From Candidatus Phycocordibacter aenigmaticus (lineage in GTDB: Bacteria; Patescibacteriota; Minisyncoccia; Phycocordibacterales; Phycocordibacteraceae), in assembly GCA_045401115.1 (NCBI GenBank), contig CP174359.1, positions 50,117-114,116 of the forward strand: DNA of 64,000 bases, given 5' to 3'. This document shows, piece by piece, positions 1,325 through 46,738 of this stretch (positions within the stretch are counted from its first letter, which is position 1; every line of letters begins with the position of its first letter). The notes beneath the pieces are model-generated. The model was not told where the DNA came from. It was given only the letters and a program-made list of their open reading frames with translations, and searched no databases. Position numbers and translations under genes: made by a program.

Positions 1325-1399
1325 TGTATGGGTGGTGTTATGGGAGAAAAATAATGAGTTGACTTTATTTAAAAAAATGGTATTATACGTATAGAGTAT

Positions 1400-3368: not shown

Positions 3369-3440
3369 AGTGGATAGGCTCGGAATGAGCGGCGGCGGGA
3401 TGCCGAGTTAGTGTGGTCAACACCCGGGTGTTGACCATAC

Positions 3441-4118: not shown

Positions 4119-4119
4119 A

Positions 4120-5412
4120 CTATTTCACTAACGCGTCAGCTATTTTATAAATATCGCCGGCGCCCATGGTGAGGATGAGCGTGTCCGGGGTGTCGAGGGT
4201 ACGCAGTGCTGACTCAATGTCTTCAAGTGACTCGTAAGGTTCCGCCTGAGTACCAGCAGCGGTTATTTTCTCGGCGAGTACGGCGCTGGTGACGCCTTCA
4301 ATTGGTGCTTCGCGCGCGGGGAAAATGGGCGCGATGAGCACGCGATCGGCAGCAGTGAATGCTTCGGTGAACTGTTCCATAAAATCGCGCGTGCGGGTGT
4401 AGAGGTGTGGGTGGAACGCCACGACAATTTGTGTGTCGGGGAATTTTTTACGGACTGCCTCGAGGGTAACGCGTATTTCCGTGGGGTGATGCGCGTAGTC
4501 GTCGTAGATGGCGGCGCCGCCAGGCGCCGCGCCTTTGTGTTCAAACCGCCGCCAAGAGCCTTGGAACGTAGCAACGCTTTCGTAGAGCGCATCCTCGTCA
4601 AGAGATGAAGCGAATGCTTTAGCCGCAGCAATGGCAGCCTGCGCATTGGCAACGTTGAAGTCGCCAAGGAGCGCAAGCTTCGGTGGGATTACGTCGCTGT
4701 AATCAATCACGCGGCAGGGCGCGTGATCGGCAAGTTCCGCTCCAACTTCGCTCTTGAGGTTGACGATAAGTGCGCCGTCTGCGGGGAGGCGCTCGACCGC
4801 CGTGCGAAAGCTTTGCTTGAGTTGTTCAAAAGTGGTGAAGTAGTCGGTGTGTTCCCATTCAAGGTTAGTGACTACCAAAATGTGCGGCGCCAGCTTCAAC
4901 ATGTGGTCACGGTACTCACATGCCTCAACCACAAAAGGACTTCCGAGTTCACCGGTGCCCGGCACAAAATTTGAATCAAAATCTTTTACGAGTGAGCCCA
5001 CAACTACTGTAGGGTTTCGCCCAGCATCACTGAGCATTTTAGCGAGCATCGCGGTGGTGGTGGTTTTCCCATGACTGCCGGCAACAGCTATGGTGTACTC
5101 TCCGCGCGATACGTCACCAAGTGCTTCGAAGTATGACTGTTCAGAGATGCCACGGTCGTGCGCAGCTGTGCGCTCTGAATCTTCTTCTGGTACGGCGTCT
5201 GAGTATACAAGGAGGTCTACGTCTTCTGGGAGGTTTTCAGCAGCGTGGCCGATAGTGACGGTAATTCCCTTTTTCTTCAGTAGTTCGGTGACAGGAGACG
5301 CACTGCGGTCAGAACCTGAGACTGCTACGCCACGCGTGTGGTACAGCTGAGCGAGTGCGCTCATGCCGATGCCGCCGATGCCGACCATGTGTACTTTTTT
5401 CGGTAGATTCAT
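4120..5412 (-). CDS. murC: UDP-N-acetylmuramate--L-alanine ligase MurC
   Basis: HMVGIGGIGMSALAQ (N-terminal dinucleotide-binding motif), GSHGKTTTTAM (P-loop) and DDYAHHPTE are Mur ligase signatures, and gene order is murC-murI-murD. Confidence 0.9.
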   Translation of the reverse strand: MNLPKKVHMVGIGGIGMSALAQLYHTRGVAVSGSDRSASPVTELLKKKGITVTIGHAAENLPEDVDLLVYSDAVPEEDSERTAAHDRGISEQSYFEALGDVSRGEYTIAVAGSHGKTTTTAMLAKMLSDAGRNPTVVVGSLVKDFDSNFVPGTGELGSPFVVEACEYRDHMLKLAPHILVVTNLEWEHTDYFTTFEQLKQSFRTAVERLPADGALIVNLKSEVGAELADHAPCRVIDYSDVIPPKLALLGDFNVANAQAAIAAAKAFASSLDEDALYESVATFQGSWRRFEHKGAAPGGAAIYDDYAHHPTEIRVTLEAVRKKFPDTQIVVAFHPHLYTRTRDFMEQFTEAFTAADRVLIAPIFPAREAPIEGVTSAVLAEKITAAGTQAEPYESLEDIESALRTLDTPDTLILTMGAGDIYKIADALVK

Positions 5413-5419
5413 ACTGCCT

Positions 5420-6184
5420 TTACTCTACCACCTTCAATGAAAAATCAGTATCAGGAAAGAGTGTAGCGACTGTGTGGCGGAATACCGGCGTATCTTTGCT
5501 GACAAAAAAATGAGTGCGTCCCTCGCCTACTTCCTGCCGTTCCCAGAGCTCTGCGGCGCGTTCGGCAACTGCTTGTGCAGGATCGTAGAGTGAGAGGCGC
5601 GGGAAAAGTTCTTTAAATAGTGGGAGGATAAGCGGATAGTGAGTGCATGCAAGAATAAGCATGTCGTAGTGTTCTAGAGACACTTCGGAAAATGCCTGGG
5701 TGATAAGTGAGCGAAGTGTGGTGTCTTCAGCATCGTTTTCTATTGCCCCGGCAAGACCTGGCACCGATACAACATCAACTGAAGCGCCTATCATGTGGAA
5801 TGCGTTTTGGTAGATATGCGATGCAACGGTTGCCGGAGTTGCACATATAAGTGTACGGTTGGTATTAGTAGATCCCCCGACGGCGCGCGTGGTGGGACCG
5901 ACCATTTCAATTACGTGACCCGGTTCGATTGAGAGTGTGTCATAGAGCGAGAGCGTGAGCGATGCGGACACGCTGTTACACGCGCTGATGATTTTGGTCG
6001 CACCTTGTTCGTGCAGAAAGCGTATCGAGTGCATGGTACGCGCGGCGATTGCTTCGCGAGACTGTTCGCCATAGGGCGCGTGCGTGGTGTCGCCAAAGTA
6101 GATCACATCGGCGCTCGGTACTATTTCGCGGAGCGCTTTGAGTACGGTAAGACCGCCAACGCCTGAATCAAAAATACCGATCAT
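5420..6184 (-). CDS. murI: Glutamate racemase MurI
   Basis: IGIFDSGVGGLTV, CNS and ACTHYP motifs with the two catalytic Cys. The 4-nt ATGA overlap with the murD stop indicates an operon. Confidence 0.9.
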   Translation of the reverse strand: MIGIFDSGVGGLTVLKALREIVPSADVIYFGDTTHAPYGEQSREAIAARTMHSIRFLHEQGATKIISACNSVSASLTLSLYDTLSIEPGHVIEMVGPTTRAVGGSTNTNRTLICATPATVASHIYQNAFHMIGASVDVVSVPGLAGAIENDAEDTTLRSLITQAFSEVSLEHYDMLILACTHYPLILPLFKELFPRLSLYDPAQAVAERAAELWERQEVGEGRTHFFVSKDTPVFRHTVATLFPDTDFSLKVVE

Positions 6185-7515
6185 AGAGCGCGCACAAGAG
6201 TGGTGAACTGATCTCCTCTATCAAACTCGTTAGTGAACATACCGAAGGATGCGAAGGCGGGGCTGAAAAGAATAGTGTCGCCCGGTTCGGCTGCGGCGTA
6301 TGCTTCATTCACTGCACTTTCAAGGGTGTTGTGGAGTGTCGCGTCGGTGTCTTGCGGGAGAATGCGCTCCGTGCCGGAGCCCGCCAGATACACCACGCGC
6401 TTGGTATAGCGCGGGAGCGCTTCGGTGAGCGCGCTCATGGAAAGGCCTTTGTCTGAGCCGCCTATGATCAAAATGACGGACGTCGGACGTCCGTCATGTG
6501 GGACGGTAAGGGTGTGGAGGGCGGCGAGGGTCGCTTCGGGGGTGGTGGCGGTCGTGTCGTTGTAGAATGCTATGCCGTTTATTTCACGAATACATTCGAG
6601 GCGGCCTGGCACACCGGCGAAGTCGGCAAGCGCTTGAACGCTGAGTGCATCGTCAACCCCTGCCGCGCGCGCGGCGTTGAGTGCGCAGGCAGCGTTTGCG
6701 CGGTTATGTTCACCAGGCACTTTGAGTTGGAGGTTTTCCGGTAGTGTGTCCGTAGGTGCCACTGCGCGTTTTGCGATAATAGCGTTGTCGTAATGCTCGG
6801 TGAGGAGTGGTGCTACTTGTTCACTCATTACCAACGTGTCGTCCGGCGTTTGATGGAGGAAAATCTGCGCTTTATCGGCAAGATACGCGTCCATGTTGCT
6901 TTGGTAGTAGTCCATGTGGTCGGGGAAAAAACTGGTGAAGACTGCGATATGCGGACTCACCTGCGCGGCACCAAAACCCCAGCACTGCCATGAGTCGAGT
7001 TCCATAAGCGCGATGCTTTTTTCCGTTACCTGAGGGAGCAACGCGAGTGTGGAGACGCCGCGCACGTTGCCGCCAAGGAGTACCTCTTTTCCTGCTGCCT
7101 GCAAGATGTCATACAACATATGTGTGACGGTGCTTTTCCCACGTGTTCCAGTAACACCAATAACCGGGATGTTTGCCAACTCGGCAAACCAACTGGCGCT
7201 CATTTTTATCGGAGTCCCCTCTTTTTGTGCTTCTTGTATATACGGTGAGTCCACCGGCACGTTCGGTCCTTTTAAAATGAAGTCCCGGTTTTGGAAATCC
7301 TCTAGACGGTGTTCACCGAGGGTGTAGGTTATGTGTGGAAATTGTTTTAGTTTTTCAAGTGACGGCGCGAGGGCGTCGGCGTCTTTCAGGTCGGTGACAA
7401 TAAGGTCAGCGCCGTGTTCAGCAAGGAATGCGACATCCCCCACTCCACGTCCGAGAAGGCCCAAACCCACCACGGTTATCTTTTTTCCTTTAATTATGTC
7501 CTGCCAGTTTTGCAT
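6181..7515 (-). CDS. murD: UDP-N-acetylmuramoylalanine--D-glutamate ligase MurD
   Basis: KITVVGLGLLGRG (Rossmann), GVTGTRGKSTVT (P-loop) and C-terminal Mur ligase domain. SD-like AAAGAGGTG lies upstream. Confidence 0.9.
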   Translation of the reverse strand: MQNWQDIIKGKKITVVGLGLLGRGVGDVAFLAEHGADLIVTDLKDADALAPSLEKLKQFPHITYTLGEHRLEDFQNRDFILKGPNVPVDSPYIQEAQKEGTPIKMSASWFAELANIPVIGVTGTRGKSTVTHMLYDILQAAGKEVLLGGNVRGVSTLALLPQVTEKSIALMELDSWQCWGFGAAQVSPHIAVFTSFFPDHMDYYQSNMDAYLADKAQIFLHQTPDDTLVMSEQVAPLLTEHYDNAIIAKRAVAPTDTLPENLQLKVPGEHNRANAACALNAARAAGVDDALSVQALADFAGVPGRLECIREINGIAFYNDTTATTPEATLAALHTLTVPHDGRPTSVILIIGGSDKGLSMSALTEALPRYTKRVVYLAGSGTERILPQDTDATLHNTLESAVNEAYAAAEPGDTILFSPAFASFGMFTNEFDRGDQFTTLVRAL

Positions 7516-7590
7516 GGATTCATTCTACCGCACCTCTTTCAGGGCCCGAAATAAGTCTTATGGGAACGTATAATTGCGAAATATACTCCT

Positions 7591-7908
7591 TTGAACTATA
7601 GTGAAGACATGAATGAAAGTGTTGAGAGTTTTGCAGCGGAGCACCCAGCGGCGCTGGCCCTCCTTATAGGAGCTGGTGCATTGGCAGCTGTTTTTGGATA
7701 CCGCGCATGGCAACAAAAAAAGAGACTGATAAAAACGTTACAAAACTTCAAGGACGCCTCGAAGACATTCTTCATAATGCTGGGTGTGGTAACCGGTGCG
7801 TGTACACTCAGGAAGAACAGGAAGCGGCTGCGGCAGAGCGTTGGGGCAAAAAAACATAGCACTCACTTCGTGGTGTTAAGAACAGAATTGATACACAATT
7901 TATACTAA
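7591..7908 (+). CDS. Hypothetical small membrane protein
   Basis: 105-aa ORF with hydrophobic segment ALALLIGAGALAAVF; no recognisable family. Confidence 0.3.
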   Translation: MNYSEDMNESVESFAAEHPAALALLIGAGALAAVFGYRAWQQKKRLIKTLQNFKDASKTFFIMLGVVTGACTLRKNRKRLRQSVGAKKHSTHFVVLRTELIHNLY

Positions 7909-7918
7909 ACGTAACGAT

Positions 7919-8092
7919 ATGACTATAGATAATCCAGAGAGAATCCCGGAGCCGGGTAGTATGCCGATAGAAAACTTTATTGAGTGGCATATTGTTGAGA
8001 ACCTTGACCATATTGCGCTCGCACTCATTTTAGCGGCGGCGGGAGTGTCAGGATATCTCATGGCACGAAGGAATTTTAGAGAATAATAGGCG
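7919..8092 (+). CDS. Hypothetical 57-aa protein with C-terminal TM anchor (below the ORF-track size cutoff)
   Basis: ATG at 7919; translation MTIDNPERIPEPGSMPIENFIEWHIVENLDHIALALILAAAGVSGYLMARRNFRE ends at TAA 8090-8092. Same tail-anchored layout as the small ORF 8196..8387 on the opposite strand. Confidence 0.25.
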
Positions 8093-30445: not shown

Positions 30446-32200
30446 TTAAAATACCTCCTCTCCCTCTCTACTATAAAGGAGTAGCGCCAACCGGATCATC
30501 CGGTATGGATACGCTCCCTCAAGGTGGGTAAATATATCTTTCAATTTCTCAGTGCCCACAACCTTGCACGCGTCGTGGATAGTATCAATATCGTTTTCAA
30601 TACCGGCGGCAAGGTACGCAATATCGCGAGGACTCAATAACCCCTCATCCACGCACTCCTTTATATGTGTCAATATTGTTTCAGCTTTAAGCCCGCGCTC
30701 CTGCGCTATCGCATCCAGCGCCTGCCCGTCCCGCACATATTCAAGCGTCTCGTGCGCTGAACGTTTTTTCTGCACACCACCAGCGGCGGCACCCTTCCTC
30801 TTCTTTCCCGCCGGCGCATCGGCGCCGGCGGGACCACCCTCCTCGCTCGGCTCAGACCCACCACACGCTTTTACAAAATTCGCATGCATCGTTTCCACCT
30901 CGCTCGACTCCATGCTCGCAAACGCCTCCCGCGCCTCCAGCGACTGCGCGCGAAACGCCGCGTCCTTAGCCAACACCTCTGGGTGCACCTCAAGTGCGCG
31001 CTCGTTAAAGCCAGCAAGCGAAAGCCCCGCCAATGTCCGCACGCGCGAAAGCGCCACATACCCCTGCCCATATTCAAACGCCCGCGACAAATCCATATGC
31101 GCCGCGTCCAGCGACATCCCCTGACTCTTGTGCACGGTCATCGCCCACGCCAGACGCAGCGGCACCTGCCGAATACTCGCCAACACCCGTCCCCCGTCTT
31201 CAATACGCCACTCATCGGGCTCCGCCACCAACTCCCTGCCGTCATGCGTTTCCACTACCGGCAAACCGTCCTCATTAAAATCAATCACCACCCCCAACGT
31301 TCCGTTCACATATCGCCCGCGCATGTGGTCGTTCTTAGTAAACATCACCCGTGCACCTTCTTTCAGTTCCAACTGCTCCGGCGACAGGCACCCCCGCTTC
31401 AGCGCATCCACCAAACGCGCCGGCCCCGTGCTCTCCATCTTCAAACGCTTCGCTTCACTGGCAAGGTTCCCCAATGCTCGTTCATTAATTTGGTCCACGT
31501 TTGCATTATGCGCGTACAGTTGTGTCACCTCATCGTCCGGTTCACCACCCGCGCGATATTCCAAAATTGCTCGATGCTCTTCCGTACACGCACCACGCCG
31601 TATCGCCAACAACAACTCAAGAAATTCAGGATCTTCTTGTCGATACTGCTCAGACAGGTAACACACCAACGGTTGCAGGTCGCGCCACGCCGGCGACTCA
31701 AACGCAAAGTCCGTCATAGGCGCATGTGCGAACATCCCCTGTCCATGCGGCGCACGACGCACCACCGGCGGCAACTGGAAAAAGTCTCCCACCAACACCA
31801 CCTGCATTCCGCCAAACGGCTGCGTCGTGCGCCGCACTTCCCGGCACACCGCGTCTACCATGGACAGCGTACCCTGCGAGAGCATCGACACCTCATCAAT
31901 AATCAGCACGTTCGTGCTCGTCACACGCTTCACCACGTTCTTGTTCTGCGCGATCATGTCCAGATCCTGATCGTTCAAATGGTCCTTGATACCGATACCA
32001 CTCCACGAGTGAATCGTCATACCACCAATGTGTGTCGCCGCAATGCCGGTCGACGCGGTAATAGCCGGGTCAATTCCCCGCTCACGTAACCACCGCACAT
32101 ACGCGTTCACCGTATGCGTCTTTCCACTCCCCGGCTCACCAGTCAGAAACACGTTCGCCCCGGTTTTCAAAATAGTCAGCGCTTCGCGTTGCGTCATCAT
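30446..32200 (-). CDS. PIF1/RecD-family SF1 DNA helicase with C-terminal HTH domain
   Basis: LTGEPGSGKTH (Walker A), LIIDEVSM (Walker B), VLVGDFFQLPPV, TVHKSQG and GYVALSRV, with a C-terminal HTH-like tail. The gene is strongly GC-rich relative to the window, so the long antisense ORFs are artefacts. Confidence 0.8.
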   Translation of the reverse strand: MMTQREALTILKTGANVFLTGEPGSGKTHTVNAYVRWLRERGIDPAITASTGIAATHIGGMTIHSWSGIGIKDHLNDQDLDMIAQNKNVVKRVTSTNVLIIDEVSMLSQGTLSMVDAVCREVRRTTQPFGGMQVVLVGDFFQLPPVVRRAPHGQGMFAHAPMTDFAFESPAWRDLQPLVCYLSEQYRQEDPEFLELLLAIRRGACTEEHRAILEYRAGGEPDDEVTQLYAHNANVDQINERALGNLASEAKRLKMESTGPARLVDALKRGCLSPEQLELKEGARVMFTKNDHMRGRYVNGTLGVVIDFNEDGLPVVETHDGRELVAEPDEWRIEDGGRVLASIRQVPLRLAWAMTVHKSQGMSLDAAHMDLSRAFEYGQGYVALSRVRTLAGLSLAGFNERALEVHPEVLAKDAAFRAQSLEAREAFASMESSEVETMHANFVKACGGSEPSEEGGPAGADAPAGKKRKGAAAGGVQKKRSAHETLEYVRDGQALDAIAQERGLKAETILTHIKECVDEGLLSPRDIAYLAAGIENDIDTIHDACKVVGTEKLKDIFTHLEGAYPYRMIRLALLLYSREGEEVF

Positions 32201-32337
32201 TCCTCTATCCTATCATTTTCAAAACCACCCATGTGCGGACGTCCGACGTCCGCACATGGGTAGGTCACACACCGCCCTCATACAAAACAGCGGCGGCCCC
32301 TTCGGGACCGCCGCACCATCGCACCACCTACCACTCA

Positions 32338-32820
32338 CTAATACCCCAACCGTCGCATGTCAGTCATAAATCCCGTACGGCGCAGTGCATACTCATGACG
32401 CAATGAATCAAACAACTCGCGCGACATATTCGCTGGGTACCCGTCTTGGTTAATGTATCGTTGTGCATCAACATCAACCAAACGATCAAGCGCGTATCCC
32501 ATCGCACGCAAATCTTCCTTATATCCAATAATAATATTGTCTGCCACACCATCGTCAATACGCCGCGCCAAGTATCGCATCTCCTCCACGTCTTCCCATA
32601 CAATATCGCGCATCGCCACCACATCTTCATATACATCCCACGCCAGTCGTTCCTCTACGGGTGCTACTTCACCAGACGGTCCTTGCTCATGTGGAAACTC
32701 GCCCTCACCAACCGATGGTCTAATCGGCTTATCCTGCAACACTTTTGCGCCGTCATATATGTCGGTGTCACTATCAAAAACCTGATGCACGTCTTGTAGT
32801 ATTTCAATTAAACCTTCCAT
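32338..32820 (-). CDS. Hypothetical acidic protein
   Basis: 160-aa ORF between the giant protein and the helicase, on the same strand with a 13-nt gap to the giant ORF. No family recognised. Confidence 0.4.
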   Translation of the reverse strand: MEGLIEILQDVHQVFDSDTDIYDGAKVLQDKPIRPSVGEGEFPHEQGPSGEVAPVEERLAWDVYEDVVAMRDIVWEDVEEMRYLARRIDDGVADNIIIGYKEDLRAMGYALDRLVDVDAQRYINQDGYPANMSRELFDSLRHEYALRRTGFMTDMRRLGY

Positions 32821-32835
32821 ATATTCATTATACGC

Positions 32836-35800
32836 CTAGCGTTTATTTTGCAAGCGCCGACGATGCATCACCCGCCGCAGTATAAAATAGAGGGCTATAT
32901 ACAGCGCCACCAGGAACAACAACCACGTGCTTATGCGCAACAACCAATCAACCTCCCCCGCTCCGACAGCCGCTAGCTGTTGAGTCTGGGGTGCCACGTT
33001 GCTTCCCACCACTACTTCCATCTTTGGCGCATCTACAGCAGTCGTCGTTGCTACATCAGACACGCCTTCGTCCGCCACCACACTCAACGACCTCGGCGCG
33101 GGTGCCTCCGGCACCCGCGCCGACACTTGCCCACCACCACTGACACGCGCCACCGTCTCTTGATCTGCCGCTACCGCCACACCATCCTCTTCTTCATCCT
33201 CAACTACCGCAGGAACACTCTCCTCCTCTTCTTCCTCATCATCAAAAATTCGTCCGTTGCTTCCGCCGCCGGCAGGCACTGGTGCTTCTGGCTCCACATC
33301 CACATCAGCACAATCACTATTACTATCGGCCTCTACGGTCGTATCCACCTCACCATCACCATTGCTATCAAGTGCCAACGCACTCACCGCACTGCCACTT
33401 ACATTAAACGTTCCGTGCGATTCAGCCGACACCGTAAAACTACAAAATGCCGCAGTCACGGTCTGCCCACTTCCCTCTAATATCTCAAACAACACACTCA
33501 CTACGCCGTCTCCTGTACCATCCACCGCCACTGTATATTCCTCACCTTCTGGCACCACCACATACTGCGCTTCACCTACCGTCACGTATGCACTGCCGGC
33601 AATCTCCTCTTCAGAGAACAGCACCTCCCCATCTGGATCTTGCGTCGCATCAAGTCCAGTATAATTGCCCGCGCTATCGACAATACTCAACGACACCGGC
33701 GAATGCGCGCTCACTACCAACGAACGTGGCACATCTGCTTCAGTAAATAGTTGTGTTCCAACGTATCCGCCGGTACTCACCGCACCTGCTGAAAGAATAC
33801 TCCGCAACACATCAAACGTCGGTGTCGCTTGCAGTAAGTGAGTAAACAATGACACTCCCGCGTCGCGCACATACTGCCCCATCTGTATGTAGTAGGTCGT
33901 CGCGCTCTCGTCGGCTGCCGCACTCGCACTGGCAACCACGCCGTCACCATCAGTGCGCCACTGTGCCTGCTGTTTTGTCTCATCACTGCCGGCTGCTCCC
34001 CAGTAGGTCACTCCGCTCAGAGTCGGCAGTCCCCATCCGGTAAGTTGCACCACCGCCATTCCCTCAGGGAAACTAAACGCATCATACGTGTCGTGCACCG
34101 CCTGCCCGCCGCTCACGCGATTCGCGGACAACGCGCCCGGCGCGCCCCGCCGGGCGCCACCCACACGCGGCACCACACTTCCCACAACAAACGATACAAA
34201 ATCATCATACGTACGCACACCGTCATCACCATACGCGCTGCGCCACGCCTCACCCTGCTCCACACTTTCAGTAAAACCAACTACCGCGCCGCGCTCCGCC
34301 GGCGCGACCACCCGCTCAAAATATGTCCGAGAAGGCAGCACCACACTCGCACTGCCAAGGTTCGCCCCAAACGCTGGCGTGCTACTTCCCACTGCAAAAC
34401 GTACCGGAAGATTCATCGCCATAAAAGGCGTTCGTGCGCCATTACTACTTTCAGTCACCTCATCATGCAACAAACCAACAGCACTCCGGGCACTCCCCAG
34501 TTGCGGCACACCTGCCAAAAGCACCGTATCCACCAAATCCGCTTTTCCTTGCGCAACCAATTCCCGCACCAGCGCCTTCGTCACCAAACCGCCATACCCA
34601 TGCGCAACCACCGTCACCGAACCAGTGTATGAATTCTCAGCCAACGCTTCTATGCGCGCTACCATATCCAAAACCCCATTCGCTGTTGCCACACCATTCT
34701 CCACAACAGCAGTTGGTGTATACCGCCAGTCATACGGCAGTGCTTCCCATGCAGCTATCGTCGACGTACCCGTCACACTGTCCACCTGTGCTAATGCATC
34801 AAAAAAGGTACTCGCCGTATCATACAGACCCACTGTTTCCGTTCGACTACCACCGGCGCGCACCGGCACACCAACACTAAACGAAGTAATTAAATCGCCC
34901 ACCACAATGCCACTCTCCTGCGACACACCGGCGTCAGTAAAGGCAAGCTTCGCCAGGTCATCCTCCACCTCACCAACCTCAGGCGGCCACAACTGGTCTC
35001 CTCCTTGTACCAACTGTGAACCCTGCATATCCGGCACAAATACAACCGACGAACAACACGTTGGTGTTGGCGGCACAATTATTGGCGCACTGTCCAACCA
35101 CGGGTCATACACCGCACTCCCGTCAATACGTGCTCCCGTACCTTCATCATTGTCGCGGTGGTCTGGCCCCGTGTCACTACCCCACCAAGAATTCGTCGCC
35201 TGCACAGAAAATGCAGCTCGATTATCAATACCCACACTCACCGCAGCAAAATCACTCTGCTCAATAGAAAACGCGTCACCGCCAAACACCCGCACTGCCG
35301 GGCTCCCCTCACTAAAAAGTGCACGCGACACCGTGGTCGTACCACGCTCCTGTACCAATGCACCTGAGTTCTTAAAATCAGAAATCACCGCGCGCGTCAC
35401 CGTTGCCTCACCGCCACGGTTTACCAAAAACCCATTCGAATTACAAAAACCAAACCGACACTGAAACGACGCTCCAAAATACCGCGCTTCTATATTTTCA
35501 AGTACCGCAGTGGCACCCTCACTCACCCGCACGCCATACGCCATGTCCCCAGGCGCCGCGACACTCGCATCACCATCAGCATTACTATCTCCTAAAACAC
35601 TGTCGTCGCGTAGCGACGTAAACACCACCGCCTCAGCGCCCGGTGTACTCGTCCCTACCTGCAAATTACCGTCCTCACCCACCGAGAAAAGCGTATGATT
35701 ATCAACATCTGAAAATCCTTTTATTACCACGCCCGGATCCACTGAAAACCGCGTTCCGTCTTTAATAGACACGTTCACTGGGCGGTACGGCACACCATCT

Positions 35801-37419
35801 TTCACTAACCGATACGTTGCTCCGTCCCAGAATGAACCCGTCACCAATATCACTCCCGTTCCGCTGGTACTGCCACTATTCGTAAAATCTGTGCCACCGG
35901 CAATACGCACGTCACTTGCTGAAAGAGTCACCTCACCAAAGGTCAACGTACCGCCTTCCGCATCAAACCCATAGTCCATATTCGTAAACGTCGTATCCGT
36001 CACCGTACTTTCACCACCACGCTGCACCACTCCCGTGCCACCGCCGGTAAACACACTCTCGCGCAGCGCCAATGTACCGCCAGTCACCCGCACAAATCCC
36101 GAGTCCGTACTCGTTGCCACCGTTGTGGTACGCATCTGCACATCTCCGCCGTTCACTGCTACTGCCGGTCGGTACGTACACCCACCACCGCCACACGCTA
36201 CCGCCACGCCGCCATAATAAAAATGTGTATGAGCCACACGCACAACAGCATCCTCACTGAATGTGATGTTGTGCCAGTCACCAACGCTCGGCGTGCTCGC
36301 ATCAGCATCACCATTTGTGTCTCCACCCCGGCTATCATCCTTGAGCGATGTCACCACTACCGGGTTCCCACTCGTACCTTCAATATGTAACGCACCAGTG
36401 CCCTGCACTGAAAGTGGCGTACTCCCCGAAAGCTTCACAATTGTTCCTGCTTGCACGGTCACGCGCACATCACTATCAATCACTACGTCATCAAACACAT
36501 ACACATTCTCAGCGCTCAGCGTCGCATCCTCCGTCAACGTTCCCGTCAATGTCACCACTGGCAATCCCGGCACCGTTACTGTCAGTGAACTCGTCGCCGT
36601 ACGTAGGGTGCTATCTACTACATAGTCGTAGTAACTCACCGCCACCGTGTAGTCACCGCTCGCTACACTCTCTCCATCATCAGTGGTACCGTCCCACTCA
36701 GCGCTCGCCGTCGTTGATGTCGCGTTTTCATCAAAAGACGCTACCGCAGTCGCTGACCCACAGTCAGCGCCACCATTAGGACACACAAACAACTCCGTCA
36801 CATACACCTCCCGCGACGCGCTCACCGCCACCGCAACAGGTGTGCTCGTGCTCAGCGTTGCATCATCCTCCACACCATCGAGGGTAAACGAAATAGTCGC
36901 CGGCAGCGCCCCTGCCGGCTCCTCAACCGTAATGCCAATCAGCGCCTCCTCGGTCAACGCGTCAGACTGTTCACTATAATTAAAATACTGCACCGAAAAC
37001 TCGTAGTCTCCCCCGTCCACGCGCGTACCACCGTCATCCGTCCCGTCCCAGTCTTGTGACGCGCTCGTACTTGTCGCCTGCACCGTGAACGTCTTCACCG
37101 CACTATCTGCTGTACACGTACCTGCCGCATCCGGACATATAAAAAGAGCATCCACATATACCTCATCGGTGGCACTCACCCCCAGCGCCACCGTCGCCCC
37201 ATCGGCGTCGGCCAACGTCGCGTCAGTCTCGGCGTCATCCAGGGTGAACGTTAATTCCACCGAGTTATCCTCCGCAGGTGGTGGTGGTGGTGGCGGAGGC
37301 GGAGGTGGCGGTGCAGCTCCCTCAGCAACCACCGACAGCGGCATCACCAAAAGCATCACCACCAGCGTCAAAGAGACTGCTCGCGCACCTGCATTAAATA
37401 GTGTGGGAAACAACCACAT
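32836..37419 (-). CDS. Giant (1527 aa) secreted/surface protein: signal peptide, poly-Pro linker, 2x FlgD-Ig-like domains, right-handed beta-helix, LCAT-like alpha/beta-hydrolase domain (nucleophile Ser replaced by Gly), Ig-like domain, acidic and Pro-rich linker, C-terminal TM anchor
   Basis: Domain evidence: N-terminal hydrophobic signal followed by PPPPPPPPPPPP; FlgD-Ig-like repeats (TFTVQATSTSASQDWDGTDDGG...GDYEFSVQYFNY, repeated twice); Gly/Thr-rich beta-helix repeats and NSWWGSDTGP; LCAT-family signature EALPYDWRY with elbow VTVVAHGYGGLV; and C-terminal WLLRISTWLLFLVALYIALYFILRRVMHRRR. Paralogue of ORF 41461..45906. Confidence 0.75.
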   Translation of the reverse strand: MWLFPTLFNAGARAVSLTLVVMLLVMPLSVVAEGAAPPPPPPPPPPPPAEDNSVELTFTLDDAETDATLADADGATVALGVSATDEVYVDALFICPDAAGTCTADSAVKTFTVQATSTSASQDWDGTDDGGTRVDGGDYEFSVQYFNYSEQSDALTEEALIGITVEEPAGALPATISFTLDGVEDDATLSTSTPVAVAVSASREVYVTELFVCPNGGADCGSATAVASFDENATSTTASAEWDGTTDDGESVASGDYTVAVSYYDYVVDSTLRTATSSLTVTVPGLPVVTLTGTLTEDATLSAENVYVFDDVVIDSDVRVTVQAGTIVKLSGSTPLSVQGTGALHIEGTSGNPVVVTSLKDDSRGGDTNGDADASTPSVGDWHNITFSEDAVVRVAHTHFYYGGVAVACGGGGCTYRPAVAVNGGDVQMRTTTVATSTDSGFVRVTGGTLALRESVFTGGGTGVVQRGGESTVTDTTFTNMDYGFDAEGGTLTFGEVTLSASDVRIAGGTDFTNSGSTSGTGVILVTGSFWDGATYRLVKDGVPYRPVNVSIKDGTRFSVDPGVVIKGFSDVDNHTLFSVGEDGNLQVGTSTPGAEAVVFTSLRDDSVLGDSNADGDASVAAPGDMAYGVRVSEGATAVLENIEARYFGASFQCRFGFCNSNGFLVNRGGEATVTRAVISDFKNSGALVQERGTTTVSRALFSEGSPAVRVFGGDAFSIEQSDFAAVSVGIDNRAAFSVQATNSWWGSDTGPDHRDNDEGTGARIDGSAVYDPWLDSAPIIVPPTPTCCSSVVFVPDMQGSQLVQGGDQLWPPEVGEVEDDLAKLAFTDAGVSQESGIVVGDLITSFSVGVPVRAGGSRTETVGLYDTASTFFDALAQVDSVTGTSTIAAWEALPYDWRYTPTAVVENGVATANGVLDMVARIEALAENSYTGSVTVVAHGYGGLVTKALVRELVAQGKADLVDTVLLAGVPQLGSARSAVGLLHDEVTESSNGARTPFMAMNLPVRFAVGSSTPAFGANLGSASVVLPSRTYFERVVAPAERGAVVGFTESVEQGEAWRSAYGDDGVRTYDDFVSFVVGSVVPRVGGARRGAPGALSANRVSGGQAVHDTYDAFSFPEGMAVVQLTGWGLPTLSGVTYWGAAGSDETKQQAQWRTDGDGVVASASAAADESATTYYIQMGQYVRDAGVSLFTHLLQATPTFDVLRSILSAGAVSTGGYVGTQLFTEADVPRSLVVSAHSPVSLSIVDSAGNYTGLDATQDPDGEVLFSEEEIAGSAYVTVGEAQYVVVPEGEEYTVAVDGTGDGVVSVLFEILEGSGQTVTAAFCSFTVSAESHGTFNVSGSAVSALALDSNGDGEVDTTVEADSNSDCADVDVEPEAPVPAGGGSNGRIFDDEEEEEESVPAVVEDEEEDGVAVAADQETVARVSGGGQVSARVPEAPAPRSLSVVADEGVSDVATTTAVDAPKMEVVVGSNVAPQTQQLAAVGAGEVDWLLRISTWLLFLVALYIALYFILRRVMHRRRLQNKR

Positions 37420-37737
37420 ATATTCTCACTATATATGCTTTTTCTATGGCTTTAACCAAACACGCCGTCTCCCATCTACCACTTTCCACCTACTATTTAC
37501 TACCTTCCACTTTCTACCTACCACCTACCAATTTCCACATACTTGCGCACGCATTCCCCACATACTTCTCCCCAGTTTTATCCCCACCACGCCTCCAACA
37601 CGCGCCGACATACTCCCACGGATACACAAAAAGTTTTCCACTACAACTTTTCAAAAACCTAAAAATCTCTTCCGGGCACGGCACCCAAAAAATAAACGGC
37701 TCACCAGAGTGAGCCGTTTATTATCTTGCTGTAAGAA

Positions 37738-38032: not shown

Positions 38033-38374
38033 TTAATTAAATATTACAAACGCGAAACAAATAAGCCCAAACACTGCCGCCCACACCACAGCGCCTGCAG
38101 CCAAGTCCTTGCTCCGACCAATAGCCGCATCATGCTCAGGATGAAGCTTACTCAACGCTATCTCAATAGCTGAGTTTTGCAGTTCGGCAACCATAACAAA
38201 GAACCAACAAAATACGAGTAGTAACAGTTCATTTGATGAAAGGTTGAATACCATATACACAATAGGAAGGCCGACTACCCCAAGAGCCGCCTCAATACGA
38301 ATAGCACTATCGTGAACAAACGCGTACCACAACCCCCGAAACGGATGCGAAAGCCGTGTTATCCAATATTTCAT
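38033..38374 (-). CDS. dgkA: Prokaryotic diacylglycerol kinase / undecaprenol kinase (DgkA family)
   Basis: 113 aa with three TM helices, HPFRG, SAIRIEAALG and NSAIEIALSKLHPEHDAAIGRSKDLAAGAVVWAAV (DAGK_prokar signature). Confidence 0.75.
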   Translation of the reverse strand: MKYWITRLSHPFRGLWYAFVHDSAIRIEAALGVVGLPIVYMVFNLSSNELLLLVFCWFFVMVAELQNSAIEIALSKLHPEHDAAIGRSKDLAAGAVVWAAVFGLICFAFVIFN

Positions 38375-40897: not shown

Positions 40898-41464
40898 TCA
40901 CAGACGTGCACCCGCCATAATCCACTCAACCAACAGGCGTATATAAGGACTTGCTATTAACATTGCGCCAATACCGAGCACTACCCCACTCAACCAATAC
41001 CAGAGGACATGGAGTTTTTTCTTTCCGGAACGTTGCCGCCTCTCACTCAATATCGAAACACCAATAACCCCCAAAGAAACTCCGACATAAAGTGAGCTTA
41101 AAATTAACGCGAACTCAGAATTTGACGGTCCAAGATCCCAACCGCCGCTAGACGACTCATCTGGCCACCATATAAGTATTATTGCTATAGGGATATACCA
41201 TACTGCAAACTTCCGCCACGCGTGCACTGCTTGCGGGATAAAGAAAAGGAGAAAAAAGACAATAGCGAGGGCGATGGAGGGATAGAAAAGTTGATCGCCA
41301 AGTAATGGAAATGGACAAGAAGTATCCATGACACGTGTTTCATAATTTATATAACAAATTCCAAACTGATAACTATGGTTAAAAAAGTAACCTGCTATTG
41401 CTCCTGCAACCGAAAGCAAGAAAAACCAAAACATCCAATTTTTAAATAACTTTTTCATACTCAA
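40898..41464 (-). CDS. Hypothetical polytopic membrane protein co-transcribed with the giant protein ORF 41461..45906
   Basis: 188 aa with about five TM helices. Its start overlaps the upstream giant ORF stop (ATGA), implying translational coupling. Confidence 0.5.
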   Translation of the reverse strand: MSMKKLFKNWMFWFFLLSVAGAIAGYFFNHSYQFGICYINYETRVMDTSCPFPLLGDQLFYPSIALAIVFFLLFFIPQAVHAWRKFAVWYIPIAIILIWWPDESSSGGWDLGPSNSEFALILSSLYVGVSLGVIGVSILSERRQRSGKKKLHVLWYWLSGVVLGIGAMLIASPYIRLLVEWIMAGARL

Positions 41465-44400
41465 AATAACGAATTAATAAATCTTACAGTTTGCTTAATA
41501 AAGCCAATAATTTTATCGTACCACCCTGTTTGCACTACTGCCGCCACTTGTGCACTTTGTGTGTCAGGTGTAGCAGTGCCTAATTCACGCTCAGACTCTA
41601 CGCTCGTTTCTGGAGTCTGCGTAGTGCGTGCAACAGGTTCAGTTTCTACATGCACGATAGGCGCCGGAGCTGGTTCTGGTTCGCTCACCTCAGGCGTTGT
41701 AGTTGCACTGGTGGTGGCAGTTACTACTCCACTCACCACACTGACTGCTGAAGACATTGCAGTTGCACCCACTGAAACTGCTGGCGAGTCCAAACCGCCC
41801 GACACCACACCATCTACTCCATCAGGAGACACTGTCTGGTCAACATTTCCGTCCCCGTCGAGGTCAAGAGCAATATCACTTGAAGCGCCGCCGGTAATGG
41901 TAAACGATGCTTGGGTTGAAGTAGACACTGTAAAGTTTGAATAACTCGATACTATCTTTTGGTTATCACCTGAAAGGGTTTCTACAAACACTGTCACATC
42001 CCCACTGCCAGTGCCACCCATAGCAAATGTATACTCTCCATCATCAGGAAGGATAAGATATTTAGCGTCACCAACTGTGAAATATGAACTGCCAGGGATA
42101 TCGTTCGTGACAGTGAGAATATCAGCATCCGGGTCCTGGCCAGGGGTGATGCCGGTATAGTTTCCGTGCTGATCGGTAACACCAAGTGTGACTGGAGAGT
42201 GAACGTTAACGATTAATCTATCGTCCTCATCATTGGGCTCCCATTTTGTTGCAGAGATATATTCACTCTCTGTTACTGTTTTATTTTTTAAAACATCATA
42301 TATAAGACCCTGGGTCGGATTAACACTAACAACATCTTTATGGTCTGTGTCTTTGTGGCTCTCGCTATATAATTTTAAATTAAAATAATATTTCTCCTCT
42401 CCACTACTCACTGCACTTGGATATACTACCGCCCCATCGCCCTCCGTAGTAAAGAGTGCTCTATAAATATTGTTAGCGCGCTCTCCATCACTATCCCCCT
42501 CTTTGTTGAAGTGGTAAGTAATACCTTTAATGGTTGGAAGACCCCAGCCTGCAACCTGCACTACCCGTATGGAACTTGGGAAATTAAAACTGTCATACTC
42601 CCGATGCCAGTCTCGTGCTTTAGTGACCAAACCTGTTTCGAGCACTTCCGGAACCTTATATTTTTTGTCATTTGGAGCACGTGGTATAAATGCTGCTGTT
42701 AGAAAATTACTCATATCAAGGAAACTGGTAGTGGTGTCGCCATACGTCGACCACCACTTTCCAAGCATTCTTGAAGCTTCGCGTTCGGTTTCAGGCTGTA
42801 CAAAAACGATGACAGGGTCAAGCACTTTTTCGAAATATTTCTCTGACGGTAAAAGATGGTGAGACACATCTATCGTTTTCCCCAGTCGTCGTGCGTCTCG
42901 TTTTGAGATTAAAGTAATAAACCCTCCTGCTACCGTAATTTCAGAGCCCTCACCATGCAATAACCCTGTCATCGCCCGCGGTGTCCCGAGTTGTGGCGAA
43001 GCAACCATAACAAAATTATCAACCAAGCCTTCTTTTCCTTCATCAATTAAACGTTTAATAAGCGCCTTGCCTACCAAGCCGCCGTACGAATGCATCACCA
43101 TCGTTACCTTCCCAGTGCGCGATTCCTCGGCAAGCGCTTCTATACGCTCCACAAAGTCAATCACTCCTTCGGTGGTTGTGGCACCATGCTCGGCAATATA
43201 GTCCGGCGCGTAGCGCCAGTCGTACGCTAATGGCTCCCATGCAGTAATAGCTGAAGCGGTTTGCTCGCTACTCGTCGCAGTGAGCGTATTCATAAAGTCA
43301 GTGAAGGGTTGATAAATAGGCTTAAGAGAGAAATTATTTAAAACACCATCAACCACCACATTATCTGTCACCGGCTCACCGGTTTCATCAAACACCAGCT
43401 TTGCAAAATATCCATCAGCTTGATGTAATGCAGTTGGCCATAATGTATTTCCCCCGCTCTTCAACCTACTCCCCTGCAACCCCGGCAAAAACACTACCGA
43501 AGAACAACACACCTCTCCTTCATTCTCCTCACCTTCCCCTTCTTCACCACCATCATCACTAATCGGCGGTGGCGCAAACGGGTCATACGAAAGCCAGTTA
43601 CTAAATTCCACCAACCCAACCGCAGCCACGCCGCCTCCGTCAGGATTAGACGAATGTTGAGGTCCACTCACACTACCCCACCAGTTACGCACCGCATCAA
43701 ATGTTTTTGAAGAATGGTTATGAATGGCGGTTGCCAACGAACTATAGAAAGCACTCCTGGTAATACTGAAACTGTCGCCACCAAACACCCGCACCGCTGG
43801 CCCACTTCCCTTAAACTGCGCACGCGACACGGTCGTCGTGCCCCGCTCCTGCACAATAACGCCCGAGTTTTTAAAGTCTGAAAACTCCGCATACTCAACC
43901 GTCGCCTCCCCACCCCGATTCGTTAAAAATGCGTGCGAGTTACAAAAACCAAATGCACATGAGAAATTCTTTCCAAAGTACCGCGCAGTGATATTCCCTA
44001 AGGAAACCGTCCCGCCTTCCGAAACCCGAATACCATACACCATATCCCCGGCCTGCGGCGTGGTACTGGCGCCATCATTATCTGTGTCCCCCAACACCGT
44101 ATCGTCACGCAACGAGGTAAAGATTACTTTTTCAACACCTTCCGCAGCATCTCCCACCACCAAACGCGCGCCACCACTTACCGAAAAAAGAACATCATTA
44201 TCAGTCTCAGATAACCCCTTCACCACCACCCCTGGGTCAATGGTAAACAACGTGTCGTCCTTTAAAGAGACATTATGTATATGATACGGAACACCATCTT
44301 TAACGAGTCGGTATGAGTCACCGTCCCACAGCGGTCCGGAAATAAACACAGACCCATCCCCGGTATTCCCACCGGTATTGGTAAACATAAGCGAATCTTC

Positions 44401-45906
44401 CGTCTCAGGATCAAAATGAAAACTGGAACTGCTCAACGTATTATTCCCAAACTCAACCTCTCCATTCGTCGCCAAAAGTGCTCGCTTCACTCCGGAAAAT
44501 GTACTGCTCGCAATCACTGCACTCCCGCCCAGCACCGCAAACCCTACATCACCCCCACGCACCGTACTACTTGCCACACTCAACGAACCACCATACAAAC
44601 GCACAAATCCTGAATCGGTTGTAGTTGCCACGCTCACATTCTCTAGTGTCACAACGCCATCAGCAATATACAACGCCGGGCCCGTGCAAGAATCATGCGT
44701 ACATGTTTTTACCGCACCCCCATACCGCACATCCGTGTTATACACACGCACCGTACTGTCATCACTGACGAGTATCTTACTCCAATCACCTTGACTCGGC
44801 GTCGTAGCGCTTCCATTCTCGTTACTGTCGCCACCAACCGAATCATCATACAGCGAGGTAATAGTAACTGGCGTCCCCGTCGCCGTTCCCACTGTAATTG
44901 CTCCACCATTTTTCACCTGCACCGGACGCTCGCCATACAACTTCACCACGGTCCCCGGCCGCACCACTACATGCGCACCGGAAACAATCATATTCTTTAA
45001 AATATATACCTCCCCGTCCCCGCCCACCGTCATATCAACATCAATCACTCCCGACAATGCACCTCTATCCACCAACTCCTCCTCAGACAGATCACCAAAT
45101 ATAAACACATCTGGCGAAACCTTTTCTACCGCCTCCTCCCCTGTAGCATAGTCATAGTAGCGAACCGCTGCTTTATAGTACCCTGGCGCTACCGCGCCAC
45201 CGTTAGAAGAAGCGCCATCCCATGTTTTTGAAAAAGCTGACGTAGTTGCGTTTTGCGAAAAGAATTTAACATCCGTACTCCCGTCACACGTTGTCACTAC
45301 TTCCGGGCATATGTATAAACGAGTAAAGTAAAACTCCTGCGGAGCTTCCACACCAATCGTAATCTCTCCCTCTCCAGATAAATCTTCAAACGAAAACATA
45401 AACTCAGACGGCGTCGTAGTCGCCCCGCCACCAGAACCATCATCCTCCACACCTTCACCGCCCTCACCGTCTCCATCTCCGCCACCATCAGACCCCTGCA
45501 CCGAAATCGTATACGCTCCCACTTCCTCAACAGCATCCTCCTCTACCTCATAACGATAATAGCGAGAAACCACTGTATACACTCCTTCCTCAACCTCTTC
45601 ATCATCTGCATCAGTGCCATCCCACTCCCGAGACGCACTCGTACTGGTTGCGTTAATATCAAAACGCTTCACATAGCTACTCCCGTCACAGACCTCAGCC
45701 TCAAAACTACAAATATACAACCGCGTAAAACGCACCTCGGTGGGTGCAGTAACACTAATAGTCATCGGTTCCCCTCCCTGCACAAAAGAAACATTCTCGG
45801 CCACTCCATCAAAACTAACACCTGTATAGCTGCTGCCCTCGGCAAACACCGCACCCGGCACTATAAAAAACAGCAAAACTACCACGGTGTATCGTAAACA
45901 CCTCAT
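41461..45906 (-). CDS. Giant (1481 aa) secreted/surface protein, paralogue of ORF 32836..37419: signal peptide, FlgD-Ig-like domains, beta-helix, LCAT-like alpha/beta-hydrolase with intact Ser nucleophile, Ig-like domain, Thr/Pro-rich C-terminus
   Basis: Same domain order as the other giant ORF: INATSTSASREWDGTDADDEE...GVYTVVSRYY; a beta-helix with NWWGSVSGP; CCSSVVFLPGLQGS...EPLAYDWRY...VTMVMHSYGGLV (elbow x-H-S-Y-G); and a C-terminal Ig-like domain. Confidence 0.75.
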   Translation of the reverse strand: MRCLRYTVVVLLFFIVPGAVFAEGSSYTGVSFDGVAENVSFVQGGEPMTISVTAPTEVRFTRLYICSFEAEVCDGSSYVKRFDINATSTSASREWDGTDADDEEVEEGVYTVVSRYYRYEVEEDAVEEVGAYTISVQGSDGGGDGDGEGGEGVEDDGSGGGATTTPSEFMFSFEDLSGEGEITIGVEAPQEFYFTRLYICPEVVTTCDGSTDVKFFSQNATTSAFSKTWDGASSNGGAVAPGYYKAAVRYYDYATGEEAVEKVSPDVFIFGDLSEEELVDRGALSGVIDVDMTVGGDGEVYILKNMIVSGAHVVVRPGTVVKLYGERPVQVKNGGAITVGTATGTPVTITSLYDDSVGGDSNENGSATTPSQGDWSKILVSDDSTVRVYNTDVRYGGAVKTCTHDSCTGPALYIADGVVTLENVSVATTTDSGFVRLYGGSLSVASSTVRGGDVGFAVLGGSAVIASSTFSGVKRALLATNGEVEFGNNTLSSSSFHFDPETEDSLMFTNTGGNTGDGSVFISGPLWDGDSYRLVKDGVPYHIHNVSLKDDTLFTIDPGVVVKGLSETDNDVLFSVSGGARLVVGDAAEGVEKVIFTSLRDDTVLGDTDNDGASTTPQAGDMVYGIRVSEGGTVSLGNITARYFGKNFSCAFGFCNSHAFLTNRGGEATVEYAEFSDFKNSGVIVQERGTTTVSRAQFKGSGPAVRVFGGDSFSITRSAFYSSLATAIHNHSSKTFDAVRNWWGSVSGPQHSSNPDGGGVAAVGLVEFSNWLSYDPFAPPPISDDGGEEGEGEENEGEVCCSSVVFLPGLQGSRLKSGGNTLWPTALHQADGYFAKLVFDETGEPVTDNVVVDGVLNNFSLKPIYQPFTDFMNTLTATSSEQTASAITAWEPLAYDWRYAPDYIAEHGATTTEGVIDFVERIEALAEESRTGKVTMVMHSYGGLVGKALIKRLIDEGKEGLVDNFVMVASPQLGTPRAMTGLLHGEGSEITVAGGFITLISKRDARRLGKTIDVSHHLLPSEKYFEKVLDPVIVFVQPETEREASRMLGKWWSTYGDTTTSFLDMSNFLTAAFIPRAPNDKKYKVPEVLETGLVTKARDWHREYDSFNFPSSIRVVQVAGWGLPTIKGITYHFNKEGDSDGERANNIYRALFTTEGDGAVVYPSAVSSGEEKYYFNLKLYSESHKDTDHKDVVSVNPTQGLIYDVLKNKTVTESEYISATKWEPNDEDDRLIVNVHSPVTLGVTDQHGNYTGITPGQDPDADILTVTNDIPGSSYFTVGDAKYLILPDDGEYTFAMGGTGSGDVTVFVETLSGDNQKIVSSYSNFTVSTSTQASFTITGGASSDIALDLDGDGNVDQTVSPDGVDGVVSGGLDSPAVSVGATAMSSAVSVVSGVVTATTSATTTPEVSEPEPAPAPIVHVETEPVARTTQTPETSVESERELGTATPDTQSAQVAAVVQTGWYDKIIGFIKQTVRFINSLF

Positions 45907-46012: not shown

Positions 46013-46738
46013 TTATCCTTTTTTTGAGCCAAGGTACCTAAGCTCTTGTGTATATTCAAAATGTGAAACTACTCCCACAAGATGTTTAACATCATCAAAA
46101 GAAGGAACATCCTCCTCAAGTTCCTTCAGTGCATCAAAATTAATAATGACCCGCTCCGGTCGCACCCTCCCTGCCCCTATATCAGGGAAACTCGCATGCG
46201 CGTAATTCGTAAGAAAAGAAACAGCATCACTCGGCAATGCTTCAAAACCGTCCTCTTTCCAGTTCGGCGCATGCAGATCAAGCGGATTAAGCGCGACATA
46301 CGCAAAGAGCCACCGCAGATAATCACCACTCTCTACGTGCCTACTCTTAAAAGGTCCTTGAAACACCGTTCCGGAATGCTCATGCTTTTTATTGAAATAC
46401 ATAGAATACCCCGTCGAAACCTTTTTCATAAAGCGTGAAATCCCCTCTTCGGCCTTTTGCCGGAGAATCAAATGGAAATGATTCGGCATCAACGCGTACC
46501 CCAAAACATCTACCAACCCCTGACCCACCTCCTCTTTTTCAAAAATTGATATAAAGGACTGTCCTTTATATTTATTGAGAAGATTTGCCGTGTGCATCTC
46601 CCTTTCGGTATTAGCAAGAAATAAAAGCAATTTAAAACGAAAATAATCTCTCTCATCGAGAAAGACCTCGGCCTTATGCGCGCCGCGATTATAGACGTGA
46701 TACACCTCATCAGCTACCAGTGGTGTTTCCCTCTGCAT
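46013..46738 (-). CDS. IS200/IS605-family HUH tyrosine (Y1) transposase, REP-associated (RAYT)-like
   Basis: N-terminal VYHVYNRG, HUH motif MPNHFHLIL and catalytic-Tyr motif AYVALNPL (Y-x3-NP). Flanked 60 bp upstream by a GTAG-initiated REP pair. Confidence 0.6.
   Translation of the reverse strand: MQRETPLVADEVYHVYNRGAHKAEVFLDERDYFRFKLLLFLANTEREMHTANLLNKYKGQSFISIFEKEEVGQGLVDVLGYALMPNHFHLILRQKAEEGISRFMKKVSTGYSMYFNKKHEHSGTVFQGPFKSRHVESGDYLRWLFAYVALNPLDLHAPNWKEDGFEALPSDAVSFLTNYAHASFPDIGAGRVRPERVIINFDALKELEEDVPSFDDVKHLVGVVSHFEYTQELRYLGSKKG

Follow-up and report, generated by a model that had tools for sequence, protein, structure and literature searches.

Two giant paralogous surface proteins in one genomic window

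The window analysed here is a 64,000-nucleotide stretch of the genome of Candidatus Phycocordibacter aenigmaticus, an ultra-small member of the Patescibacteriota (assembly GCA_045401115.1, contig CP174359.1, positions 50,117 to 114,116 of the forward strand), and all coordinates are counted from its first letter. On its reverse strand lie two giant open reading frames (ORFs), which we call paralogue A (32836..37419(-), 1527 aa) and paralogue B (41461..45906(-), 1481 aa), and whose products align over their full length with 38% identity across 1419 residues (E = 0). B is identical to XKT74548.1, a 'lipase/acyltransferase domain-containing protein', and from the neighbouring accessions XKT74540 and XKT74542 we infer that A is annotated between them, as XKT74541. 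Here we report that A, a giant surface protein with an intact ORF, carries a degenerate LCAT/LPLA2-like domain that has lost the nucleophile serine and the presumed catalytic base, while the catalytic residues of B are complete.

According to a hydropathy scan, A begins with a hydrophobic segment, presumably a signal peptide that would be cleaved off, and then a 12-residue poly-Pro run (residues 1-33; 37321..37419(-)). Two FlgD_ig-like repeats follow at residues ~52-285 (36565..37266(-); Pfam PF13860, E = 9e-9 in two stretches, with approximate boundaries), and then two right-handed beta-helix modules at residues ~286-780 (35080..36564(-); Pfam PF13229), which are no less conserved than those of B. 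The LCAT/LPLA2-like alpha/beta-hydrolase domain, predicted to be inactive, occupies residues 788-1238 (33706..35058(-)) and is succeeded by a beta-rich C-terminal domain that is strongly diverged in identity and in relative rate (residues 1239-1368; 33316..33705(-)). An acidic low-complexity stretch separates the latter from a second hydrophobic segment found by hydropathy, a helix at residues ~1490-1519 with an Arg-rich tail, which we presume to be a membrane anchor (32863..32952(-)). In B, the hydrolase domain comprises residues 800-1235 (42202..43509(-)).

The two proteins end differently. The C-terminus of B (41464-41553(-)) shares the tail Q(S/T)GWYDK..(G/S)FIK......F..SLF with P0008, P0009 and P0010, the three nearest, catalytically intact relatives used in our comparisons, and this tail could be a sorting or anchoring signal. 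At the C-terminus of A (32839-32952(-)), the classical hydrophobic helix and Arg-rich tail replace it.

The nucleophile elbow of A encodes glycine

A preliminary description of this DNA, made from the sequence alone, had pointed to HGYGG in A against HSYGG in B and held the glycine to be genuinely encoded, and our reading bears this out. The peptide VTVVAHGYGGLV is the product of A at 34585-34620 on the reverse strand, where the codons run from gtg acg gtg gtt gcg through cat ggg tat ggc ggt to ttg gtg. The elbow itself, His940-Gly941-Tyr-Gly-Gly944, spans 34588..34602(-), with His940 at 34600-34602(-) (codon CAT) and, in the place of the invariant nucleophile serine, Gly941 at 34597..34599(-) (codon GGG). 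At the aligned position B has Ser940, encoded by TCG at 43087-43089(-), inside VTMVMHSYGGLV. Because GGG is two base changes away from each of the six serine codons, a single miscalled base is ruled out as the cause of Gly941. The reading frame of A is uninterrupted across 4584 nt, and the other frames around its active-site regions are stop-rich. A compensated frameshift hidden near the degenerate regions was considered and rejected, as the alternative frames are full of stops. Two antisense ORFs overlap the elbow region of A (34088-35464(+), 458 aa, and 34045-34632(+), 195 aa); a family search with both returned no match, and we take them to be spurious, a probable consequence of a coding strand that is rich in GC and strongly skewed (GC skew about -0.33).

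The same description had taken the HSYGG/HGYGG turn for the nucleophile elbow of an LCAT-like alpha/beta-hydrolase and had proposed a comparison with LCAT-family structures. This assignment is upheld by profile alignment, hhalign, Foldseek and the strand-turn-helix position of the turn, which all agree. The Pfam LCAT model (PF02450, cut-off 21) matches B with 40.3 bits (E = 3e-10) and A with 19.4 bits (E = 7e-4), slightly under the cut-off; despite this score, its homology to B is unambiguous, as is that to 850 family members (E < 1e-30). When compared with the PDB, a profile of the family matches lysosomal phospholipase A2 (LPLA2, 4x90), with VTIVAHSxGGL pairing with VVLVAHSMGNM. The catalytic triad of LPLA2 is Ser165/Asp327/His359 (PMC6027918). 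In the profile alignment the family's elbow serine column falls on Ser165, and the S165A mutant chain 4x92 shows alanine there. A direct hhalign comparison of the family with LPLA2 confirmed the serine pairing with 96% probability and confirmed the Asp column too; the LPLA2 sequence used for this agrees with the LPLA2 segments in the profile alignment.

Predicted structures place the turn correspondingly. In the AlphaFold model of the B domain (mean predicted local distance difference test score, pLDDT, 76; predicted template-modelling score, pTM, 0.83) the elbow serine lies between strand 139-144 and helix 147-160, and in that of the A domain (mean pLDDT 69, pTM 0.79) the elbow glycine lies between strand 152-157 and helix 160-173. 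Foldseek returned LPLA2 and LCAT as the best PDB matches for both models, with E = 9e-11 and template-modelling (TM) scores of 0.54-0.64 for B, and with E = 1.6e-9 and TM scores up to 0.60 for A. These models, which are of moderate confidence, indicate that the LPLA2/LCAT-type three-dimensional fold is kept in both domains. Thus A retains the predicted fold and lacks catalytic residues that its close homologues of the active type possess.

Among the homologues compared, A alone departs from the invariant, presumed catalytic residues

We examined how widely the elbow serine is conserved by a phmmer search with the hydrolase and C-terminal region of A against 1.84 billion representative sequences. 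This returned 2333 matches, 850 of them at E < 1e-30, and the family members that carry names belong to Paceibacteria, Saccharibacteria and other Patescibacteria. A MAFFT alignment was built of 152 homologues, the scan covering the 150 matches listed among the ~2300 family representatives. The elbow column holds serine in 152/152 of them and also in 33/33 further genomic and metagenomic loci, so that, among the matches listed, A has the sole non-serine elbow seen, and B and 185 other homologues have serine.

The loss is not confined to the nucleophile. The alignment contains 18 strictly invariant columns, of which A keeps 16 and differs at two only, namely the elbow serine and a downstream histidine; by our own arithmetic, the chance that two random picks among 18 such columns both hit the triad is 3/153, or ~0.02. 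The histidine column, His in 152/152 homologues, is occupied in A by Phe1192 (codon TTT, 33844..33846(-)), and the presumed catalytic base is thereby lost. The region is ungapped, with the upstream YY and downstream Pro anchors equally spaced in A and B. The catalytic acid is kept as Asp1159 (codon GAC, 33943..33945(-)), in a GDG column that is Asp in 152/152 homologues and aligns to LPLA2 Asp327. Two residues past the lost histidine, His1194 (33838..33840(-)) is the sole candidate for a displaced catalytic base. In B the set is intact, comprising Ser940, Asp1157 (42436-42438(-)) and His1189 (42340-42342(-)). We presume the family histidine, His1189 in B, to be the catalytic base because it is the only invariant histidine after the catalytic Asp, comes after the final core strand in the model and gives the canonical Ser-Asp-His order; in the B model, strand EKYYFN precedes it. 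A profile of the Asp-to-His segment searched against the PDB gave chance matches to fatty-acid-binding proteins only.

In the wider set of 55 columns with conservation of >=93%, the family residue is changed 9 times in A, which retains 46, and once in B. The deviations in A include GTP -> GSA, LHG -> LHD and R1015P. Among them is also Asp797 (codon GAT, 35029..35031(-)), in a column that is Gly in 149/152 homologues; it lies in the VVFLPG motif, which comes after the first strand and forms a putative oxyanion loop. We searched the PDB with a profile covering the N-terminal portion of the hydrolase domain, to anchor this motif to the oxyanion loop of LPLA2, and found chance matches only.

Accelerated evolution of A is domain-specific

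We compared A and B, domain by domain, with P0008, P0009 and P0010. In the Ig-like and beta-helix domains, identity to these relatives is equal for A and B. In the hydrolase domain A is 39-44% identical to them and B 49-58%, and in the beta-rich C-terminal domain A is 44-47% identical and B 71-74%, the intact members being 71-75% identical among themselves. Tajima relative-rate tests gave the same picture: the three N-terminal regions were balanced (p 0.16-0.89), and the C-terminal beta-rich domain of A yielded p values of 1e-6 to 1e-8. Measured against twelve true outgroups, the hydrolase module of A has accumulated ~2-3 times as many unique replacements as that of B, P0008, P0009 or P0010. 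This excess reached p values of 1e-3 to 1e-9 with 10 or 11 of the 12 outgroups in the comparisons with P0008, P0009 and P0010, and with 9 of the 12 in the comparison with B, and control pairs of intact members were mostly balanced. In a neighbour-joining tree, the terminal branch of A is the longest (0.73 vs a median of 0.31). The hydrolase and C-terminal domains of A have thus evolved ~2-3 times faster than those of its intact relatives, and its N-terminal adhesin-like domains have not.

The beta-rich domain (residues 1236-1365 of B, 41812-42201(-)) is the best conserved part of the intact proteins, with the motifs HSPV..L...D..GN.TG, GTG.G..T and D.DGDG..D, and reaches 71-75% identity between proteins that are only ~45% identical overall. 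Searches of Pfam and the PDB gave no relative of it. Its strong divergence in A suggests that it is functionally coupled to catalysis.

Genomic setting and history of the two paralogues

The genes of A and B differ in base composition, as had been noted before: GC content is 55.9% for A and 48.4% for B, against 47.8% for the whole window. A lies in a sharply edged GC-rich block (30450..37450; GC 0.55-0.60, flanks 0.41-0.45), which also holds a Pif1-like helicase gene with an HTH_40 domain (30446..32200; GC content at third codon positions, GC3, 0.64) and a 160-aa ORF without a family match (32338..32820), and which sits directly upstream of rplJ. The block may have been horizontally acquired; we looked around it for flanking direct repeats that would suggest an integration site and found none. 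Since a second GC-rich stretch is present at 1-8000 (0.50-0.54, with genes at 4120..7515 of GC3 0.58-0.59), the genome is compositionally heterogeneous beyond the block that contains A.

The difference in GC content had been taken to suggest that the two paralogues have different histories, a proposal that holds in part. The nucleotide identity of A and B is at most 66-69%, in short stretches only, so they are not recent duplicates, and for the same reason recent gene conversion between them was rejected. Together with the location of A in the GC-rich block, this agrees with the proposal. The relationships vary, however, from domain to domain. A tree of the hydrolase domain puts B together with P0010 and P0008 and A on a long branch near P0009 (B-P0010 identity 58%, B-A 36%). 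In the second beta-helix module (A 521-780, 35080-35859(-); B 521-790), the closest relative of each paralogue is the other, with 55% identity vs 37-49% to P0008/P0010. The family looks mosaic at the level of domains, and A may be either a paralogue of long standing or a gene that arrived together with the GC-rich block.

Several neighbouring features were recorded. Between A and B lies a gene for a 113-aa diacylglycerol kinase (XKT74543.1, so named by NCBI; 38033-38374(-)); this enzyme of lipid salvage neighbours surface proteins that may harvest lipids, in a lineage reported to be without lipid synthesis. The 1.3-kb stretch upstream of A is sparsely coding and contains a 21-nt direct repeat at 37475, 37496 and 38488 and a 45-nt repeat at 37979 and 38412 (84% identity). 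The ORF adjoining B upstream (46013-46738(-)) has a weak match to IS200-like Y1 transposases (PF01797, E = 2e-6). Further along, a giant ORF of 1193 aa (48146-51727(-)) shows a sub-threshold match to a peptidoglycan-binding domain and is not paralogous to A and B. A search of the window for a third paralogue of A and B found none, and the small ORFs downstream of A and of B, considered as possible homologues, were rejected because they are not homologous to each other.

A is probably a maintained pseudo-enzyme

The substitutions in A, their uniqueness among the homologues, the fold and the domain-specific acceleration lead us to consider it probable that A is a maintained pseudo-enzyme paralogue whose hydrolase-like module has a non-catalytic role. 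In alpha/beta-hydrolase chemistry, the acyl-enzyme intermediate requires a nucleophile. With Ser replaced by Gly941, His by Phe1192 and the putative oxyanion Gly by Asp797, A would be unable to form this intermediate, and we predict it to be inactive in canonical Ser-His-Asp acyl transfer. The idea that the A domain is catalytically dead, first raised from the elbow glycine alone, is thereby strengthened by the concurrent loss of the invariant histidine and the putative oxyanion glycine and by the accelerated rate of the module. Since A has kept its fold residues, its 4.6-kb frame and, at the N-terminus, the Ig-like and beta-helix modules, it appears to be still in use. Possible signs of purifying selection on A are its intact frame, the 46 of 55 conserved columns kept and the balanced N-terminal rates; the collections searched yielded no orthologue for an estimate of the ratio of non-synonymous to synonymous substitutions (dN/dS).

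A and B belong to a family of secreted or surface proteins that is large in the Patescibacteria and has at its core a lipase/acyltransferase domain of the LCAT/LPLA2-like Ser-Asp-His type, behind which comes a conserved, beta-rich C-terminal domain. With its catalytic set complete, B presumably acts as a phospholipase or acyltransferase. In the model that we favour, A would be a membrane-anchored surface protein with its hydrolase-like module repurposed to a non-catalytic role, most plausibly gripping membrane lipid or tethering the cell to the envelope of another cell without cleavage. It might also help its active paralogue B, as ABHD5 helps PNPLA lipases.

Several points weigh against this interpretation. 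A retains Asp1159 and has His1194 two residues past the lost histidine. Its structural model is only moderately confident (pLDDT 69) and poor at the Asp and His loops. hhalign pairs the family histidine with LPLA2 His347, not His359; we regard this as a local slip caused by the common H..LL...P pattern, since with that pairing no member of the family would have a catalytic histidine, and the proposed geometry is based on sequence and model. The higher GC content might contribute to the amino-acid changes specific to A, but its N-terminal domains are equally GC-shifted and show no rate excess, so composition alone does not account for the asymmetry in rate. Searches of GTDB genomes, JGI metagenomes, the phmmer collection and two word-index protein collections found no orthologue of A and returned distant relatives only (<=35% identity in loci), all with serine; as a result, neither the age of the dead state nor selection on A across lineages can be demonstrated. 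Finally, the activity of every family member, B included, is predicted from sequence, and lipid binding or adhesion by A is a role that we purely infer.

An alternative that we regard as unlikely is that A is a gene in an early stage of decay, useless after its catalytic loss and either not yet disrupted or recently transferred in the GC-rich block. Its status as a singleton, with an orthologue absent from every collection searched, the longest branch in the family with erosion at 9 of 55 conserved columns, and the compositionally foreign block beside a Pif1-like helicase would all be expected of such a gene. The integrity of the reading frame, with its alternative frames closed, argues the other way, as do N-terminal domains that evolve at the rate of those of B and conserved structural columns, including 16 of the 18 invariant ones, that are altered far more rarely than average positions. 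By our rough estimate the hydrolase module has undergone ~40-60 excess replacements, and neutral change on this scale should have brought stops or frameshifts with it.

Less likely still is that A remains an enzyme by non-canonical chemistry, for example through a His1194-Asp1159 dyad that activates water, through Asp797 as base or nucleophile, or on a new substrate or in a new reaction. The retained Asp and nearby His, the new acidic residue beside the putative oxyanion loop and the preserved fold and pocket-forming core could serve such a mechanism, and faster evolution may also accompany a change of function. The elbow AHGYGG, however, offers no Ser, Cys or Asp as nucleophile, and the preliminary description's suggestion that A might use a different one finds little support. 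Nucleophile and base have gone together, further conserved residues, those of the GTP and LHG motifs and Arg1015 among them, have changed as well, and the loops that bear Asp and His are modelled at low confidence. To our knowledge, non-canonical catalysis has no precedent in the LCAT/LPLA2 family.

We consider it highly improbable that the glycine codon reflects an error of sequencing, assembly or binning or that foreign DNA has been joined in as the GC-rich block, giving a chimera: the genome was assembled from a metagenome, the block is sharply edged and the exact A protein was not retrieved from protein collections that hold its neighbours, but at least two substitutions separate GGG from every serine codon, nine conserved columns are altered rather than one, frame anomalies are absent, the block lies inside a 721-kb contig, the accession numbering implies that the record annotates a protein here, and a chimera would alter the owner of A, not its loss of serine. 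Exact look-up, tried from three ATG starts, and homology search of the protein collections did not retrieve A, with XKT74540, XKT74542 and XKT74548 present, which likely reflects annotation from another start codon or incomplete coverage of the collection; look-up among assembled contigs did not locate the exact sequences of A and B either.

What a maintained pseudo-enzyme would do in this organism is open to a more specific, tentative proposal. Bacteria of the Candidate Phyla Radiation (CPR) cannot synthesise their own membrane lipids and presumably obtain and recycle those of host cells (PMC8080830, PMC7242380). Because they lack lipid synthesis, lipid harvesting is a plausible job for active members of the family, and a widespread Patescibacteria family of LCAT/LPLA2-like surface proteins is an obvious candidate for host-lipid uptake. 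It is conceivable, if somewhat doubtful, that the module of A is a selected, non-hydrolytic grip on lipid or membrane, by which a lipid-auxotrophic episymbiont holds host membrane or lysolipid, alone or with B, and that the family of ~2300 representatives is a machinery for the harvest and re-acylation of host lipids. Pseudo-enzymes are common in the alpha/beta-hydrolase fold, and the dead copy is in itself an ordinary evolutionary outcome, so far a case from a single genome. The live/dead pair in one genome, with B predicted to be active and A a natural catalytic-null of like architecture, could nevertheless help to separate binding from catalysis, and A is potentially useful as a natural catalytic-null partner in studies of the Patescibacteria lipase/acyltransferase family.

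Comparison with known systems

Among characterised proteins, A and B most resemble LPLA2 (PLA2G15) and LCAT (PF02450), the top structural match for both domains. The profile alignment takes in the YDWR, HSxG (elbow) and GDG (acid) motifs, and in B a complete Ser-Asp-His set occurs in the order known from these enzymes. At the sequence level, however, identity amounts to no more than 14-16%, and the bacterial proteins are fused to Ig-like, beta-helix and conserved extra C-terminal domains. A further differs in lacking the Ser and His, and activity in the bacterial family is predicted only. Among bacterial lipases, the type VI phospholipase effector Tle4 (PDB 4r1d) matches the B model in Foldseek (E = 1.4e-7). 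Tle4 acts on the membranes of other bacteria, and the likeness would fit B-type proteins that attack or harvest foreign membranes. The sequence signal is weak (E = 0.78), delivery and domain context are different, and type VI secretion genes did not turn up near A and B, no search aimed at them having been made.

For A itself, closer functional analogies may be found in eukaryotes. In neuroligins, which belong with the cholinesterase-like adhesion molecules, the catalytic serine is also replaced by glycine. Like A, they combine a surface alpha/beta-hydrolase fold with a single membrane anchor and binding in place of catalysis, features that for A are predicted only. They function in cell adhesion without the catalytic serine (PMC12931606). 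They differ from A in that their branch of the fold, carboxylesterase type B, is unrelated, and in being eukaryotic and having a known protein ligand. The second analogy is ABHD5 (CGI-58), which is a catalytically dead copy of the phospholipase ABHD4 and serves as a membrane-binding lipase co-activator (bioRxiv 10.1101/2025.05.06.652485). ABHD4 and ABHD5 form a live/dead paralogue pair that arose by duplication and loss of serine, like B and A, although ABHD5 belongs to another alpha/beta-hydrolase family, is intracellular and eukaryotic, and a functional link between A and B is only supposed. If A does serve as a non-hydrolytic lipid or membrane grip, the two paralogues would be the bacterial equivalent of the division between ABHD4 and ABHD5 or between cholinesterases and neuroligins.

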